This document shows positions 47,210 to 52,977 of a stretch of DNA of 64,000 bases, piece after piece. Location of the stretch: NCBI RefSeq assembly GCF_046290725.1, contig NZ_JBKBUH010000001.1, positions 697,787 through 761,786 of the forward strand. The letters are read 5' to 3'. The position numbers were made by a program, and so were the translations under genes. The notes beneath the pieces were generated by a model, which had not been told where the DNA came from, searched no databases, and saw nothing but the letters and a program-made list of their open reading frames with translations. This stretch comes from Phenylobacterium sp. (GTDB lineage Bacteria; Pseudomonadota; Alphaproteobacteria; Caulobacterales; Caulobacteraceae). Position 1 is the first letter of the stretch. Each line of letters begins with the position of its first letter.

Positions 47210-47267
47210 TGGAGCGCGGAAGGGCCGCCCTCATTTTTAACTAATCTGTCAAAACTTTTGTCGGCCA

Positions 47268-47392
47268 AAAATTTGGCCCGCTGCGGGGGATATTCGCAGC
47301 GGGCCTCATTTTGAGCAGTCGCTCTTGTTGAGCGGGCGTTTCCTCCCCGAAACGCCGGAGACTGTCGGACTTGGTGGCCGTCATGTCTCTCG
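47268..47392 (-). ncRNA. Candidate small RNA with four consecutive hairpins
   Basis: Stems at about 47358-47389, 47335-47356 (8 bp perfect), 47320-47334 and 47275-47305 (11 bp perfect, followed by AAAUUUUU on minus); strand inferred. Confidence 0.55.
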
Positions 47393-47501: not shown

Positions 47502-48479
47502 CTAGGTTTTGACGCTTCTGTCAAAATTCAGCCGCCCCGCAAGGGCGGCCGAGGGCGCGCAGGCGGTCTCATAGACGAAATCCGGACGCGAGACGGTCAC
47601 CGGCCCCAGGCCGGCCGCCGCCAAGGCCATGGAGGCCTCGGCGATTCGGTGTGCGGGCACCAGCAGGCCGTTGGGGCGGCGGATGGCGCCTTCGGAGATC
47701 AGCCGCTCCACCACCGGCTCCTCCCGCGGATCGGGCGGCCAGGCCAGGGTGGCGGTCTCGTGAGCGGCGGCGCGGGCCTCGACGATGCGCAGGAACCGGT
47801 CGGCGGCGGCGAACTGGGCCGCCGACCAGCCGGCGCGCAGGGCGGCCGCCAGCTGGGCCTGGCTGCGCAGGATCGTCCCGTCGGAGATCACCTTCAGGCC
47901 GTTGGCGGCCAAGGTCGCGCCCGTGGTGGTGATATCGACCACGATCTCGGCCATGCCGGCGGCCGGCGCGCCCTCCGTGGCGCCGCCGGACTCGGCGATG
48001 CGGTAGTCGGAAAGCCCGTGCCGGGCGAAGAAGTCCCGCGTCTGGACCACATATTTGGTGGCGACCCGCATCCGGCGGCCGGTCCGCGCGAGCATGTCGT
48101 GCGCCACCTCTTCCAGGTCGGCCATGGCGTCGACATCGATCCAGCTGCGCGGAGCGGCGACCACCAGGTCGGCGCGGCCGAAGCCGAGCGCGCGCAGCAG
48201 CAGCACGCGCGCCTCCAGGTCCCCGCCACGCTCGCGCAGCAGGTCTTCGCCGGTGACGCCCAGATGCGCTTCTCCGGCGTCCAGGGCCTCGGCGATGTCG
48301 CCGGCCGACAACAGGCGCACCTGCACGCCCGTCACGCCCTTCAGCTCGGCCATGTAGCCGCGGGCGCCGCCGGCCACGGAGAGCTTCAATCCGCAGTCGG
48401 AGAGCCAAGCCTCCACCTGTTCCTTCAACCTGCCCTTCGAAGGGACGGCGAGGATGAGAGGCGCGTCGGAACCGGTCAT
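47502..48479 (-). CDS. hisG: ATP phosphoribosyltransferase catalytic subunit
   Basis: AVPSKGRL, GVTGEDLL, VATKY, GATEGAP, DITTTGATLAANGLK. Confidence 0.95.
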   Translation of the reverse strand: MTGSDAPLILAVPSKGRLKEQVEAWLSDCGLKLSVAGGARGYMAELKGVTGVQVRLLSAGDIAEALDAGEAHLGVTGEDLLRERGGDLEARVLLLRALGFGRADLVVAAPRSWIDVDAMADLEEVAHDMLARTGRRMRVATKYVVQTRDFFARHGLSDYRIAESGGATEGAPAAGMAEIVVDITTTGATLAANGLKVISDGTILRSQAQLAAALRAGWSAAQFAAADRFLRIVEARAAAHETATLAWPPDPREEPVVERLISEGAIRRPNGLLVPAHRIAEASMALAAAGLGPVTVSRPDFVYETACAPSAALAGRLNFDRSVKT

Positions 48480-49612
48480 GCTTCGCCTCCCGCCCAGGCC
48501 CGCCAGGGCCGGACCATGCAACCCACCGCCCGCGCGCCGGTCGGGCCGCCCAGGCGCGCCGGCAAACCGTCATAGCGGCCGCCCACGGCCACCGGCCGCA
48601 GGGAGCCGAGCGCTTCGGAGCGGATCTCGAAGGTCAGGCCGTCGTAGTAATCGAAGGCGTGGCCGAGGGCTGTGGCGAACCGCAGGGCGCTTTCCGCAAC
48701 CCCCGCCTTCGCCAGGGCTTCGAGGCGGAGCTCCCAACCGGCCAGCGCGGCCTGCAGGGCCGGCGCCGCGCCAGCCATGCCGCGGATCCGGACGAAGGCC
48801 GCGGCCGGCGCATCCTCCACCGCCAGGAAGGTGCGGATCGCTTCGGCCTGTTCCCGCGTGAGCGCTGGCGCACGCGCGGCCTCGGCCCGACGGATCAGCC
48901 GCCCGGCGATGGCGGCGGGTCCCCGGCCGCCCACCGGCTCCACCCCGGCCAGAGCCCAGACTTCCGAAAGCACCTCGGCGGCCTCGCCCTCCGGCAGGCC
49001 CGCCAGCAGCTCCGCCAAGCGCCCGCCGCCCGCGGGCTCGGCGACGGCCTCGCCGGCGCGCGCCAGCTCCTCGGCCAGCAGGCGGGGACGCCCCGCCACC
49101 CGCTTCAGGCGCGCGGCCAGGGGCTCGGAGAGCTCCAGCGCGTCCACGAAGGCCCCAAACAGCGCCACGTCCCCCAGCCATAGAGCCAGGTCCTTGCGCC
49201 CGCCCGCCGCGGCCGAAGCCCAGGCCAGCGCCGCGATCTCAGCGTCGGCGTCGATGATCGAGGCGCCGGGCGCATCGAACCGTTCCAGCCCCAGCTGGCG
49301 GAACTCGTCGGGGAGATCCGCGCCGAGGGCCGCGCGGAACGCCTTGCCTTCGTAGAGATAGCGCCCGTCGGCCCGGCCGGCCTCCAGGTGCTGGCGCACG
49401 ATCGGCACGGTGAAGTCGGGCCGCAGGCAGGCCTCCTCCTCGCCCTGGGACTGGACCACGAACAGGCGCGACCGCACCGCCTCGCCGGCGAGTTCGAGCA
49501 GCAGGCCGAGCGGCTGCAGGATCGGGGCGTCCACGGCCTCCGCGCCTGCGGCCAGGAACGGCGCGCGAATGGCGGCCATAGGATCAGGCGGGACGAGCGG
49601 CTCGGCGCGCAT
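48476..49612 (-). CDS. hisZ: ATP phosphoribosyltransferase regulatory subunit
   Basis: LRPDFTVP, YLYEGKAFR, EFRQLGLE, DYYDGLTFE, GGRYD; lies between hisS and hisG. Confidence 0.9.
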   Translation of the reverse strand: MRAEPLVPPDPMAAIRAPFLAAGAEAVDAPILQPLGLLLELAGEAVRSRLFVVQSQGEEEACLRPDFTVPIVRQHLEAGRADGRYLYEGKAFRAALGADLPDEFRQLGLERFDAPGASIIDADAEIAALAWASAAAGGRKDLALWLGDVALFGAFVDALELSEPLAARLKRVAGRPRLLAEELARAGEAVAEPAGGGRLAELLAGLPEGEAAEVLSEVWALAGVEPVGGRGPAAIAGRLIRRAEAARAPALTREQAEAIRTFLAVEDAPAAAFVRIRGMAGAAPALQAALAGWELRLEALAKAGVAESALRFATALGHAFDYYDGLTFEIRSEALGSLRPVAVGGRYDGLPARLGGPTGARAVGCMVRPWRAWAGGEA

Positions 49613-49614
49613 GC

Positions 49615-51087
49615 TCAGGCCTCCAGGATCCGGCGGATGGCCGGCACGAGTTCGCTCCGATCGACGGTCTGCTGGCCCGGCCGCTGGGCGCGCCAGGCCT
49701 CGTTGTCGGCCACCTGGGCGGAGAGTTCGCGGCCGAGGTCGAGGTCCTTGATCGTCACCTTGCCGGCGGCGATCTCGTCGCCGCCCAGGATCACCGCGGC
49801 GGGCGACAGGCGGCGGTCGGCATATTTCATCTGAGCCTTCATGCCCGAGGCGCCGAGATAGACTTCGGCTGGAATGCCGGCCGTCCGCAGCTCCGCTGCG
49901 ACCGCGAAGTACTGGGCCATGTCGTCCTGGCTGAAGGCGATCACCACCACCGGGCCGCGCGCCTGGCCCCCAAGATCCCGACCCGCCGCCCGCAAGGCCG
50001 AAACCAGGCGAGAGACGCCGAAGGAGAAGCCGGTGGCCGGAACCGGCTGACCGGTGAACCGGGCCACCAGATCGTCGTATCGGCCGCCGCCGCCGATGGA
50101 GCCGAAGCGGACCGGCTGGCCCCTGTCGTCGGCCGTCTGCAGCAGCAGCTCGGCTTCGAAGACCGCGCCGGTATAGTATTCCAGGCCCCGGACGATGGCC
50201 GGGTCGAACATCGCCCGATCCGAGGCGACCCCAAGGCTGTCGAGGGCGCGATGAATGGCGGCGAGTTCCGTCAGGCCCGCATCGCCCTCGGCCGATCCGC
50301 CGACGATGTTGGAAAGCCGGTCGAGGGTGTCGGCGCGACCGCCCGCGCCCCCCGCAGCCGTGAAGGCGAGCACGGCGTCGGCCCCCGCCGAGGAGAGCCC
50401 CGCGCCTTTGGTGAAGGCGCCGGATTCGTCCAGGCGGCCCTCACCCAGCAGCAGGCGGACGCCCTCAGGTCCGAGCCGGTCGAGCTTGTCGACCGCCCGC
50501 AGCACCGCGAGCTTCTGCCCCTCGTCGGAAACGCCGGCGGCGGCGAGCAGACCGTTCAGGAGCTTGCGGTTGTTGATCTTGATCACCGCGGTCCCCGCCG
50601 GCAGACCGGCCGCTTCCAGCCCCTCGACGGCCATGGCGATGACTTCGGCGTCGGCCTCGGGACGGGACGAGCCCACCGTGTCGGCGTCGCATTGCACGAA
50701 CTCACGGAACCGGCCGGGGCCGGGCTTCTCGTTGCGCCAGACCGGGCCGTAGGCGTAGCGGCGGAACGGCTTGGGCAGGGTCTCCCAGTTCTGGGCGGCG
50801 AAACGGGCCAGCGGCGCAGTCAGGTCGTAGCGCAGCGCCATCCACTGGTCGTCATCGTCCTGCAGGGCGAAGACGCCTTCGTTGGGACGGTCGGCGTCGG
50901 GCAGGAACTTGCCGAGCGCATCGGCATATTCGAAGGCGCCGGTGTCCAGCGCCTCGAACCCATAGCGTTCGTAGACGGCCGAGACCTTGGCCAGGATGGC
51001 GCGCTCGGCCGCAAGGTCACGGGCGCGGCGATCGATGAAGCCGCGGGGATTGCGGGCCTCGGGACGGGCGGTGGCGTCGTTCGTCAT
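49615..51087 (-). CDS. hisS: Histidine--tRNA ligase
   Basis: PRGFID, LRYDLTAPLAR, GRFREFVQCDAD, RGLEYYTG, GGGGRYD. Confidence 0.97.
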   Translation of the reverse strand: MTNDATARPEARNPRGFIDRRARDLAAERAILAKVSAVYERYGFEALDTGAFEYADALGKFLPDADRPNEGVFALQDDDDQWMALRYDLTAPLARFAAQNWETLPKPFRRYAYGPVWRNEKPGPGRFREFVQCDADTVGSSRPEADAEVIAMAVEGLEAAGLPAGTAVIKINNRKLLNGLLAAAGVSDEGQKLAVLRAVDKLDRLGPEGVRLLLGEGRLDESGAFTKGAGLSSAGADAVLAFTAAGGAGGRADTLDRLSNIVGGSAEGDAGLTELAAIHRALDSLGVASDRAMFDPAIVRGLEYYTGAVFEAELLLQTADDRGQPVRFGSIGGGGRYDDLVARFTGQPVPATGFSFGVSRLVSALRAAGRDLGGQARGPVVVIAFSQDDMAQYFAVAAELRTAGIPAEVYLGASGMKAQMKYADRRLSPAAVILGGDEIAAGKVTIKDLDLGRELSAQVADNEAWRAQRPGQQTVDRSELVPAIRRILEA

Positions 51088-51097
51088 GGCCGTCCGC

Positions 51098-51160
51098 CTA
51101 AAGCCTACGCCCGCGCGCGGCAAGGCGCGGCGCGGTCGATGCAGAAAGGGTGATGTCCAT
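51098..51160 (-). other. Second short uORF (20 aa) between the His leader and hisS
   Basis: ATG 51160: MDITLSASTAPRLAARGRRL*, preceded by AAGGA; stop is 10 nt before the hisS ATG. Confidence 0.3.
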
Positions 51161-51246
51161 CGTCAGGTCCTTGGGTGGAGGTCGACGGATGGAGCTTTCG
51201 CCTTGGAGAGCCCCATCCGCGGTGCGGGAGGCTCGGAGGGGTCGCG

Positions 51247-51324
51247 TCAGGCCATGCGATCCCGGCCGATGCCGCCGCGGGCGGTCGGATGGTGATGGCC
51301 GTGATGGTACGACAGGCGCGTCAT
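51247..51324 (-). CDS. hisL: Histidine operon leader peptide (attenuator uORF; absent from the ORF track)
   Basis: Manual translation MTRLSYHHGHHHPTARGGIGRDRMA*; five His codons in six positions, 160 nt upstream of hisS. Confidence 0.8.
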   Translation of the reverse strand: MTRLSYHHGHHHPTARGGIGRDRMA

Positions 51325-51366
51325 GACGGGCGGCTTCTAGCCGAGAGACATGAAGAAAGCGAGTCT

Positions 51367-52977
51367 TCAGCCCCTGAGCCGCGCGATCAGGGCGGCGGTG
51401 GAGGGGTCGTGCGCGCCGGCAGGGCCGCCTTCCAGTTCCTTGAGAATCCGTCCGGCCAGGGTCTTGCCGAGTTCCACGCCCCATTGGTCGAAGGAATTCA
51501 CGCCCCAGAGCGCGCCTTCCACGAAGGTCTTGTGTTCATAAAGCGCGATCAAGGCGCCCAGCGAGGCGGGGTCGAGCCGTTCCAGCAGAATGAAGCTGGA
51601 CGGCCGGTTTCCATGAAAGGTCTTCTGCGGGGCCAGTTCATCGACGCGGTCCTGCGGCAGGCCCTGGGCTGCGAGCTCGGCGCGAACCTCGCTCTCGGGT
51701 TTGCCGATCATCAGGGCTTCGGCCTGGGCCACCGCGTTGGCCAGCAGCTTGCGTTGAGAGGCCGCCTCGCCCTCCGCGGCCTCGCGCACCGCCACGATGT
51801 CGAGCGGGATGACCTCCGTCCCCTGGTGCATGAGCTGGAAGAAGGCGTGCTGCACGTTGGTCCCGGCGTCGCCGAAGACCGCGGCCGCCGAGGATCGGGC
51901 CAGCGGGCGGCCGAAGGCGTCCACCTGCTTGCCGTTGGACTCCATCTCCTGCTGCTGGAGATAGTTGGGCAGGAGACGCAGGCGCTGCGCGTAGGGCACG
52001 ACAGCGCGCACATGGCGGCCCAGGCCGTTGTTGTTGAAGACGTGGGCGAGGGCCAGCAGGACCGGGGCGTTACTTTCGAGCGGGGTCTCGCGGAAATGCG
52101 CGTCCATGGCCGCCGCGCCGGCGAGGAAAGCCTCGAACGCGGCCCAGCCCAGCGCCACGGCGCAGGAGAGGCCGACGGCCGACCACACCGAGTAGCGGCC
52201 GCCCACCCAGTCGCCGAAACCGAAGATCTGGTCGGCCGGCACGCCGAAGGCCTGGGCGACGTCCGGCGCTGCGGAGACGGCGATCATCTGGGCGTCGGCG
52301 GCCGGCCCCAGCGCCCCGCGCAACCAGGCCCGGGCGATCTGCGCATTGGCCATGGTCTCCTGGGTGGTGAAGGTCTTGGAGACGACGACCACCAGGGTCT
52401 CCGCCGGATCCAGGCCCGCCAGGGCCAGCGCGATGGCGGCCGGATCGACATTGGCGGCGAAGCGCAGGTCGATCTGAGGTTTGAGCGGGCGCAGCGCCTC
52501 CCAGACGAGCTGAGGCCCGAAGTCGGAGCCGCCGATGCCGATATGGACGATGGCGCGAATGGGTTTCCCGCCGGCCCCCGCCTTGGCGCCGGACCGCACC
52601 GCATCGGCGAAGGCGCGCATCTGCGCCCGGCTCGCCTCCACCTCGCGGGAGACGGGCTCGCCCTTGGCGCGGAAATCGGCGCCGATCGGCGCGCGCAGGG
52701 CCATGTGCAAGGCGGCGCGATCCTCCGACCGGTTGATCGCCTCGCCGGCGAACTGGCGCTCGCGGGCGGCCTCCACCTCTGCGGCGCGGGCGAGGGCCAG
52801 GCATGTGTCCAGGTCGGCCAGGGACCAGGGCTGCTTGGAGAGATCCAACCGCAGATGCGGAGCCTCGACGCAGAGCCTCGCCAGACGGTCCGGCTCGGCG
52901 GCGAGGAGGTCGGCGATACGGCGCGACTCTGCGGCGCGGGCGGCGGTCTCCAGCTGGATCCAGGCGTCTTGCGGCAT
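51367..52977 (-). CDS. pgi: Glucose-6-phosphate isomerase
   Basis: EDRAALH, IGIGGSDFGP, SKTFTTQET, WVGGRYSVWS, MESNGK, QHAFFQ, FDQWGVELGK. Confidence 0.97.
   Translation of the reverse strand: MPQDAWIQLETAARAAESRRIADLLAAEPDRLARLCVEAPHLRLDLSKQPWSLADLDTCLALARAAEVEAARERQFAGEAINRSEDRAALHMALRAPIGADFRAKGEPVSREVEASRAQMRAFADAVRSGAKAGAGGKPIRAIVHIGIGGSDFGPQLVWEALRPLKPQIDLRFAANVDPAAIALALAGLDPAETLVVVVSKTFTTQETMANAQIARAWLRGALGPAADAQMIAVSAAPDVAQAFGVPADQIFGFGDWVGGRYSVWSAVGLSCAVALGWAAFEAFLAGAAAMDAHFRETPLESNAPVLLALAHVFNNNGLGRHVRAVVPYAQRLRLLPNYLQQQEMESNGKQVDAFGRPLARSSAAAVFGDAGTNVQHAFFQLMHQGTEVIPLDIVAVREAAEGEAASQRKLLANAVAQAEALMIGKPESEVRAELAAQGLPQDRVDELAPQKTFHGNRPSSFILLERLDPASLGALIALYEHKTFVEGALWGVNSFDQWGVELGKTLAGRILKELEGGPAGAHDPSTAALIARLRG

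Follow-up and report, generated by a model that had tools for sequence, protein, structure and literature searches.

The stretch of DNA considered here, referred to as the window, comprises 64,000 nucleotides (nt) of a Phenylobacterium sp. genome (NCBI RefSeq assembly GCF_046290725.1, contig NZ_JBKBUH010000001.1) and contains the histidine genes hisS, hisZ and hisG, one behind the other on the minus strand. The first of them, hisS (51087..49615), encodes a histidine--tRNA ligase of 490 amino acids (TIGR00442, 382 bits). It is followed by hisZ (49612..48476; NF008949, 519 bits), which starts 2 nt past the hisS stop, and by hisG (48479..47502; PF01634), the ATG of which overlaps the hisZ stop (ATGA). 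Junctions as tight as these, a 2-nt gap and then an overlap, would allow translational coupling along the operon. Upstream lies pgi (52977..51367), and the leader between pgi and hisS is the subject of this report. It carries a short upstream open reading frame (uORF) rich in histidine codons, followed by RNA segments that can pair with one another in competing ways, and it may well act as a sensor of charged tRNA(His) for the genes behind it.

The uORF occupies 51324..51247 of the minus strand and encodes a peptide of 25 codons, MTRLSYHHGHHHPTARGGIGRDRMA. It reads ATG ACG CGC CTG TCG TAC CAT CAC GGC CAT CAC CAT CCG ACC ... ATG GCC TGA, and five of the six codons at 51306..51289 (CAT CAC GGC CAT CAC CAT), the putative sensor, are for histidine. 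With all six frames considered, a run of at least five His codons in six is found once in the 64 kb, whereas shuffling gives 0.02. No GGAG-like Shine-Dalgarno (SD) sequence precedes the uORF ATG in the window. A preliminary description of this DNA, made from the letters alone, had named a His-rich uORF without an SD sequence, placed ahead of hisS-hisZ-hisG. Each of these points has held up: the run is the sole one of its kind in 64 kb, the leader lies on the same strand as the operon and is conserved, and all three genes have family matches.

For comparison, a scan of genomes for HisS provided 80 Caulobacterales loci (single loci and sequencing runs are cited below by their working numbers, L and X, respectively). 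Judged by similarity, the HisS of the window is that of a Phenylobacterium. A homologous uORF was found 140-260 nt upstream of hisS in 41 of the 80, belonging to Phenylobacterium, Caulobacter and metagenome-assembled genomes of Caulobacteraceae, and in none of the Brevundimonas or Asticcacaulis loci among them. Thus, conservation of the His run among Caulobacterales hisS leaders, which the preliminary description had proposed to examine by alignment, stands for Caulobacter and Phenylobacterium, whereas the run is absent from the other two genera. The uORF and the downstream RNA motifs S2, S3 and S4, described below, are present together in 41/41 loci and absent together from 39/39, and are therefore regarded as a single unit. 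This unit accompanies hisS whether the upstream gene is pgi or another.

The leaders of 37 loci and the window, 38 in all, were aligned with MAFFT. Their uORFs have 24-26 codons, of which 4-7 are for His (138 CAC and 96 CAT in total); they start with ATG (GTG once) and end in a variable stop, i.e., TAA, TGA or TAG. Positions 1 and 2 of the His codons are nearly invariant, the entropy being concentrated in the third position (CAC/CAT wobble), and the indels inside the uORF are multiples of 3 nt. Third-position wobble, 3-nt indels, fixed length, a conserved start and a variable stop together point to selection on the uORF as a reading frame. A bias for CAT over CAC in the leader was also considered and rejected, as the difference (41% vs 36%) is not significant. 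In the window, codon 6 of the uORF is TAC (Tyr), one change from His. A near-identical sequence from a bioreactor-sludge metagenome (run X2) has CAC at this codon (51309, A>G on the plus strand), which restores HHHGHHH.

Alternatively, the uORF may encode a functional His-rich micropeptide, e.g., a metal-binding one, and not serve as a sensor. Its N-terminal part is indeed well conserved as a peptide, with the consensus M-T-R-x-A-HHHGHHH(H)-P-T. The C-terminal half, however, is free in its amino acids while its RNA pairing (helix P0, below) is kept, and the uORF always stands ahead of histidine genes. Moreover, a search of NCBIfam gave no family match, and single-nucleotide changes to R, C, L or Y break the His runs in several lineages. 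A micropeptide in place of a sensor is hence considered extremely unlikely.

Ahead of the uORF lies a -10-like box, GCTAGAAG (51341..51334, minus strand; putative promoter P1), which ends 9 nt before the ATG, just as the preliminary description had it. A G(C/T)TA-N4 box is found at this place in 38/38 leaders, ending 7-10 nt (mode 9) before the uORF ATG irrespective of the upstream gene. The P1 box matches the -10 part of the RpoD consensus of Caulobacter, TTGaCgS (-35) and GCtANAWC (-10) (PMC8144410); a scan for E. coli-type promoters gave nothing on the hisS-sense strand. Because the distance between the GCtANAWC-like box and the ATG is fixed at 7-10 nt, the uORF start is probably leaderless or nearly so. 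According to a study of C. crescentus (PMC4117421), SD-less and leaderless starts are common in this organism, with an SD sequence at 24.6% of starts, and several hundred leaderless mRNAs are listed in its supplement. A further, -35-like motif of the window, GACTCG (51360..51365, minus strand), lies between the pgi stop, which it follows by 1 nt, and the GCTA box, 18 nt further on. In Phenylobacterium-type loci, (T)GACTCG stands 18 nt before the box, and in other lineages TGAC(A/T)(G/C)G stands 13-14 nt before it. This motif with its two spacings, (T)GACTCG/TGACAG (window; L004, L011, L017, L034 and others), may serve either as a -35 element or for binding of a regulator.

From the 3' half of the uORF onwards, five pairing segments (S1b to S5) give rise to four mutually exclusive helices, P0, A, B and C, each of which shares a strand with the next. 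Their positions are all given on the minus strand of the window. In helix P0 (51273..51230; -19.9 kcal/mol, z = -1.7), the 3' half of the uORF, GGC-AUCGG-GGG-UCGC (S1b), pairs with GCGA-CCC-CCGA-GCC (S2), and the stop codon UGA is held in the apical loop. Helix A (51234..51208; -15.7 kcal/mol, z = -3.2) is formed by S2, GAGCCUCCCGC, and S3, GCGG-AU-GGGGCUC. The 13-bp helix B (51221..51183; -22.5 kcal/mol, z = -4.5) joins S3, CGCGGAUGGGGCU, to S4, AGCUCCAUCCG-U-CG. Lastly, helix C (51193..51156; -13.2 kcal/mol, z = -2.9) pairs S4, UCCAUC-C-GUCG (UCCAUCCGUCG), with UGAC-GAUGGA (UGACGAUGGA), such that the AUG at 51160 is in the stem and the SD sequence AAGGA (51172..51168) in the loop. The core of helix B is a 9-bp stem, GATGGGGCT/AGCTCCATC (51217..51209 / 51196..51188), which had been reported earlier as a stem without a U tract. 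The stem is present, but it should be read as an anti-sequestor, in competition with helices A and C, and not as a terminator-like output. Helices A and C had gone unmentioned, and half of helix C lies outside the coordinates then described.

Comparison of the 38 leaders supports these helices in different ways. In 38/38 leaders, P0 is the minimum free energy (MFE) fold of its segment, and in 37/38 the apical loop contains or adjoins the stop codon. In a strand-swap test, cognate strands gave -30.1 kcal/mol and strands exchanged between loci -28.0 kcal/mol for P0, and the corresponding values for helix C were -11.7 and -9.8 kcal/mol (0/2000 permutations in either case, counts that are not probabilities as the sequences are related). 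On the alignment, which is poor in the outer part of helix A, this helix is paired in 81% of cells against 25-55% when slid; for helix C, the values are 72% and 15-56%. Helix B is 87% paired, is the sole helix predicted by RNAalifold on the alignment, and has compensatory U-A/C-G changes at two positions (25/11 and 21/6 sequences). The nucleotide that follows GGGGC in S3 takes part in a three-way covariation of S2, S3 and S4, which reads A-U-A in 14 sequences, G-C-G in 6 and C-G-C in 2. Such a pattern is expected of a switch in which S3 can choose between two partners. In the L006-type lineage, S4 pairs with the SD sequence and not with the AUG. A pairing of S1 (the His codons, CACCAUCC) with S3 was also tried as a conserved helix and was rejected: in 10 leaders with GGACGG in S3, S4 co-varies and the His codons do not.

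The start codon that helix C buries is not the same in all lineages. In 17 leaders, mainly of Caulobacter, it is the start of hisS itself. In another 19, including that of the window, 50-90 nt are inserted (long type). The homologous AUG opens an ORF in a separate frame (ORF2) in 12 of these (11 loci and the window), and ORF2 ends 0-12 nt before the hisS ATG or overlaps it (ATGA); in the remaining 7, the AUG is in frame with hisS and gives an N-terminal extension. The ORF2 of the window (51160..51098, minus strand; MDITLSASTAPRLAARGRRL, 20 codons) starts at the AUG homologous to the Caulobacter hisS AUG and stops 10 nt before the hisS ATG, an arrangement that suggests coupling by termination and reinitiation. 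The sequestered AUG of the window (51160) is, therefore, the start of this relay ORF and not that of hisS. The possibility that ORF2 is a conserved peptide was rejected, since its conserved letters (CCTTCCTTGAGC, GCTAAGCG) are kept in differing frames and thus mark a DNA or RNA element.

Within ORF2 lies a promoter-like element, P2 (51123..51097, minus strand), predicted from TTGCCGC, 12 nt further GCTTTAGG, and after 9 nt the hisS ATG. The form TTG(C/A)(C/G)NG - N11-14 - G(C/G)TAAGCG - 6-9 nt - hisS ATG is kept in all long-type (Phenylobacterium) loci, whatever the frame of ORF2. It has the layout of the RpoD consensus TTGaCgS/GCtANAWC, with the same box-to-ATG geometry as in P1. P2 is probably a second promoter that would yield a leaderless and sensor-independent hisS mRNA. 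The earlier idea that one sensor controls both the synthetase and the first biosynthetic step, therefore, has to be narrowed: with a P2-like element 9 nt before the hisS ATG, the sensor probably provides only a part of the hisS control.

The arrangement as a whole points to a ribosome-mediated, His-tRNA-sensing leader through which hisS-hisZ-hisG would be controlled mainly at translation initiation, via a relay of four helices. This reading is held to be moderately probable. The helices are mutually exclusive, and one of them (P0) overlaps the uORF, so that the position of the ribosome could select among them. When His-tRNA(His) is scarce, the ribosome translating the SD-less, near-leaderless uORF would stall at one of its five His codons, before reaching S1b. 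P0 could then form, the stop codon being in its apical loop, and tie up S2, upon which S3 would pair with S4 (helix B) and the downstream SD sequence and AUG would be free, i.e., the ON state. With ample His-tRNA(His), by contrast, the ribosome would reach the stop codon, melt P0 and cover its apex; S2 would then pair with S3 (helix A), and S4 with the start-codon region (helix C), giving the OFF state. Helix B should thus be the anti-sequestor and the ON-state helix, and helix C, which sequesters a start codon, competes with it. The AUG buried in this manner would be that of hisS itself in Caulobacter and that of the 20-codon relay ORF in the window, and hisZ and hisG would follow hisS by tight coupling. 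As the signal would be charged tRNA(His), HisRS would regulate itself as well.

The output of the leader had previously been left between Rho-dependent termination and translational control, with no classical U-tailed terminator being seen. The absence of such a terminator is confirmed. A consensus scan found no terminator-like site on the minus strand between 50800 and 51700, and in the 38 leaders, helices A, B and C all lack a U tract behind them; the intrinsic terminator that forms the output of the classical trp/his-type transcription attenuator is thus missing from this leader. Of the two outputs, it is translational control that has the support of the anatomy, as S4 pairs with the start codon or SD sequence of the next ORF. 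The composition of the gene products is also in line with a leader of this kind. HisS, HisZ and HisG have 1, 2 and 5 His codons, i.e., 8 His in 1193 residues, and their His content of 0.67% compares with 1.61% for 27 long ORFs elsewhere listed for the window (binomial p ~0.006; genes at 47502..51087, minus strand). Such low values fit the need to synthesize these proteins during a shortage of histidine and are, therefore, counted as support for the leader model.

The energetics were examined by folding. In the window, P0 and B together amount to -44.7 kcal/mol and A and C to -31.0 kcal/mol; the full constrained folds of the two states are level, at -68.1 (P0+B) and -68.0 (A+C) kcal/mol. The ribosome was mimicked by masking the uORF, either up to the His-codon stall (ON mask) or up to 12 nt past the stop (OFF mask). 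With the stalled mask, helix B of the window has a probability of 0.92 and AUG 51160 is unpaired with a probability of 0.34; with the stop-codon mask, helix A reaches 1.0 and the unpaired probability of the AUG falls to 0.0. Over 36 leaders, helix A has a mean probability of 0.46 with the stalled mask and of 0.88 with the stop-codon mask.

Several observations weigh against this reading. A clean switch is seen in the window and its near relatives, but about one third of the leaders keep helix A favoured under the stalled mask. Since the equilibrium does not flip in these leaders, kinetic (co-transcriptional) folding must be assumed, and the order of synthesis, in which P0 would be complete before S3 exists, is invoked for this purpose. 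Pair counts of P0 on the MAFFT alignment came to 51%, no better than shuffles, with the 3' strand misaligned by variable gaps; the folds of single sequences and the strand-swap test were used in their place. The z-score of P0 is modest (-1.7 in the window), and that of the antisense strand is slightly better. Helix C, at -13 kcal/mol, is weak, and the CAU:AUG pairs at its core do not vary and are hence uninformative either way. Some transcripts are not leaderless, as RNA contigs of two runs continue past the GCTA box in the upstream direction; read-through from the upstream genes into the leader is likely as well. Two further points, namely RNA 3' ends just past helix A, which could mean termination there, and a known Rfam family on the opposite strand, belong to the alternatives that follow.

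The RNA evidence consists of assembled contigs without strand information, among which those of runs X28 and X41 alone are informative. No contigs over the leader of the window's own organism were among the runs found, and the contigs obtained from runs on L053 were long and flat. Contigs of run X28 that are identical to L016 break off at 2437 and 2446 (plus strand), 2 and 11 nt past helix A, and then pass into A-rich heteropolymeric tails, which mark the sense strand. A contig of run X41 ends at the same place past helix A. A short sense RNA that ends at helix A shows that this helix forms in cells. The 3' tail of one X28 leader fragment, GAAAAAAAAAGAAAATAAAATAAAA, is as expected of bacterial decay intermediates, and the library was probably poly(A)-primed.

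With such ends at hand, it can also be argued that the same sensor acts mainly through premature termination of transcription. Helix A would then be a U-poor terminator, or the untranslated RNA downstream a substrate for Rho, and helix C would be secondary. The logic of such a device would be correct, as helix A would form under histidine sufficiency. The interval between S4 and S5 is C-rich and G-poor, i.e., rut-like, and the Rfam model CC3513, discussed below, has its end within helix A too, as would be the case if a discrete short RNA built up. Nevertheless, a U tract past helix A is lacking in every lineage. Heteropolymeric A-rich tails are, moreover, typical of decay intermediates trimmed to a stable hairpin, and decay of this kind is compatible with the observed ends. 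The complementarity of S4 to the start codon or SD sequence is kept in lineage-specific ways, which would not be needed for pure termination. Termination as the main output is thus regarded as possible but rather doubtful; it is compatible with the translational relay, and both could hold.

The element is not new to the databases. RF01528 ('CC3513', a Caulobacter sRNA, i.e., small RNA) matches it antisense to hisS. The window scores 38.1 bits (E = 7.6e-5) over the whole length of the model, the gathering score being 40; L001 and L007 reach 46-48 bits, and loci of Caulobacter 100-136 bits. Besides the -10 box and the uORF, the model takes in P0 and the 5' half of helix A. Judged by these scores, the leader element is homologous to RF01528, with the window just under the threshold, and it is already catalogued under another name and strand. 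CC3513 reportedly comes from the tiling-array screen of Landt et al. 2008. The family covers the same DNA as the leader element, but its entry is for an sRNA gene on the opposite strand, with no function assigned and without the uORF, helices B and C or a link to histidine.

Should the strand given by Rfam be the relevant one, the conserved block would be the gene of a trans-acting sRNA and the His-codon run would be incidental. Rfam does place a known transcript on that strand, which counts against a leader, and the z-score of P0 is, as said, slightly better there. Furthermore, in C. crescentus-like loci only, a GCTTAAGC palindrome precedes the 5' end of the model by ~7 nt on the antisense strand. 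The codon-phase signature of the uORF (third-position His variation, 3-nt indels, 24-26 codons, conserved start and variable stop), on the other hand, speaks for translation of the sense strand. In helix B, 37 G-U cells stand against 8 A-C cells when read on the sense strand, and the z-scores of helices B, C and A are better on this strand. The A-tailed 3' ends also lie on the sense strand, beyond the 5' boundary of the Rfam model; the element always travels with hisS, whatever the upstream gene; and the candidate antisense promoter is not conserved. A raw comparison of sense and antisense MFE was dropped, as it is confounded by the C-richness of the sense strand, and z-scores were used instead. 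The sequence signatures and the A-tailed RNA ends thus favour the hisS-sense strand, and an antisense sRNA gene with an incidental His run is thought to be very unlikely. The palindrome itself is the loop of helix B in L038 and L053; it could be a lineage-specific antisense promoter, which might explain the strand chosen in Rfam.

A sense-strand leader could also have a second role. The 'CC3513 sRNA' of the C. crescentus screens would in this case be an attenuation product with a dual function, namely an abundant short leader RNA that stems from a leaderless uORF, ends just past helix A, is released at histidine sufficiency and acts in trans, as RNA and/or as a His-rich peptide, on other histidine or translation genes, while Phenylobacterium hisS would be uncoupled by its second, leaderless promoter. 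The trp attenuator RNA of Sinorhizobium, rnTrpL, is known to act in trans. For the hisS leader, such a role is speculative and considered unlikely.

At the other end of the operon, a homologue of CrfA (a Caulobacter sRNA, Rfam RF01527) was found directly downstream of hisG (47264..47391, minus strand; 64.6 bits). Its position is retained in loci of Caulobacter and of Phenylobacterium, with 80-160 bits in the former and 59-63 bits in L001 and L007. A gene for a pyridoxal phosphate-dependent enzyme of Cys/Met metabolism (PF01053; 45983..47164, plus strand) is convergent with this hisG/CrfA end.

If the translational relay is correct, a concrete and testable mechanism of histidine control would be at hand for Caulobacter, which is a major model organism, and for its relatives; none is described for these bacteria in the literature searched. 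The synthetase and the first biosynthetic enzyme would be tied to one sensor of tRNA charging, and an orphan Rfam 'sRNA' would be re-read as a cis-acting leader on the opposite strand. It would also be a natural case of leader-peptide sensing without a terminator. With the start concealed by a relay of four helices, and with a uORF that is probably leaderless, the classical need for coupling of transcription and translation at a terminator may not apply. In the Phenylobacterium version, an essential gene is predicted to be partly freed from the switch by the relay ORF and the internal promoter.

Among known systems, the enterobacterial his leader (hisL; RF00514) likewise has a short uORF with His codons before hisG-containing genes, alternative helices that are read by ribosome position, and charged tRNA(His) as the signal. 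The two are, however, not homologous. RF00514 (His_leader) gave no match at E <= 10 with permissive filters (50500..52000) and none at the gathering score in the window or 12 loci, and other cis-regulatory Rfam families gave no match either. In place of a GC hairpin with a U tract, the leader described here has five segments and four helices, with the output helix over the start codon. Its uORF is SD-less and lies 9 nt from a -10-like box, and the first gene to be regulated is a synthetase.

Leaders ahead of synthetase genes are also known, as E. coli pheST is controlled via the pheM leader peptide. In the Bacillus cereus group, His leaders stand before a hisS paralogue and hisZ (PMC2965389, PMC9413887), and some attenuators have a sequestor of the ribosome-binding site (RBS) in place of a terminator (PMC9413887). 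Like the hisS leader, those of E. coli pheST and the B. cereus group place cognate codons before an aminoacyl-tRNA synthetase gene or hisZ, with autoregulation via tRNA charging. They are, however, terminator/antiterminator attenuators (described or predicted) of unrelated sequence, and none of them puts hisS, hisZ and hisG behind one leader. For C. crescentus, leader coding sequences with regulatory codons were described for ilvBN and trpS from ribosome profiling, in a study whose main text does not mention a hisS or histidine leader (PMC4117421). In the description given there, the ilvBN leader, unlike that of hisS, has a terminator hairpin of the Rho-independent type. A His leader for an alphaproteobacterial hisS is not described in the literature searched, which is an incomplete collection.

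Translational attenuation is well known from the ermC and cat leaders, and RBS-sequestering amino-acid leaders have been predicted in Actinobacteria. As in ermC and cat, a stalled leader ribosome would here remodel the RNA and free an RBS or start codon. The trigger would, however, be codon starvation and not a drug, an extra stage of inversion would be included (P0 -> A -> B -> C), and the start that is freed in the window would be that of a relay ORF. The hisS leader has the sequence features of a leader-peptide attenuator in the broad sense, namely a uORF of cognate codons, the signature of a reading frame, and helices that compete and overlap the uORF. In function, it would be closest to translational attenuation driven by codon starvation, and close also to the leader-controlled synthetase genes.

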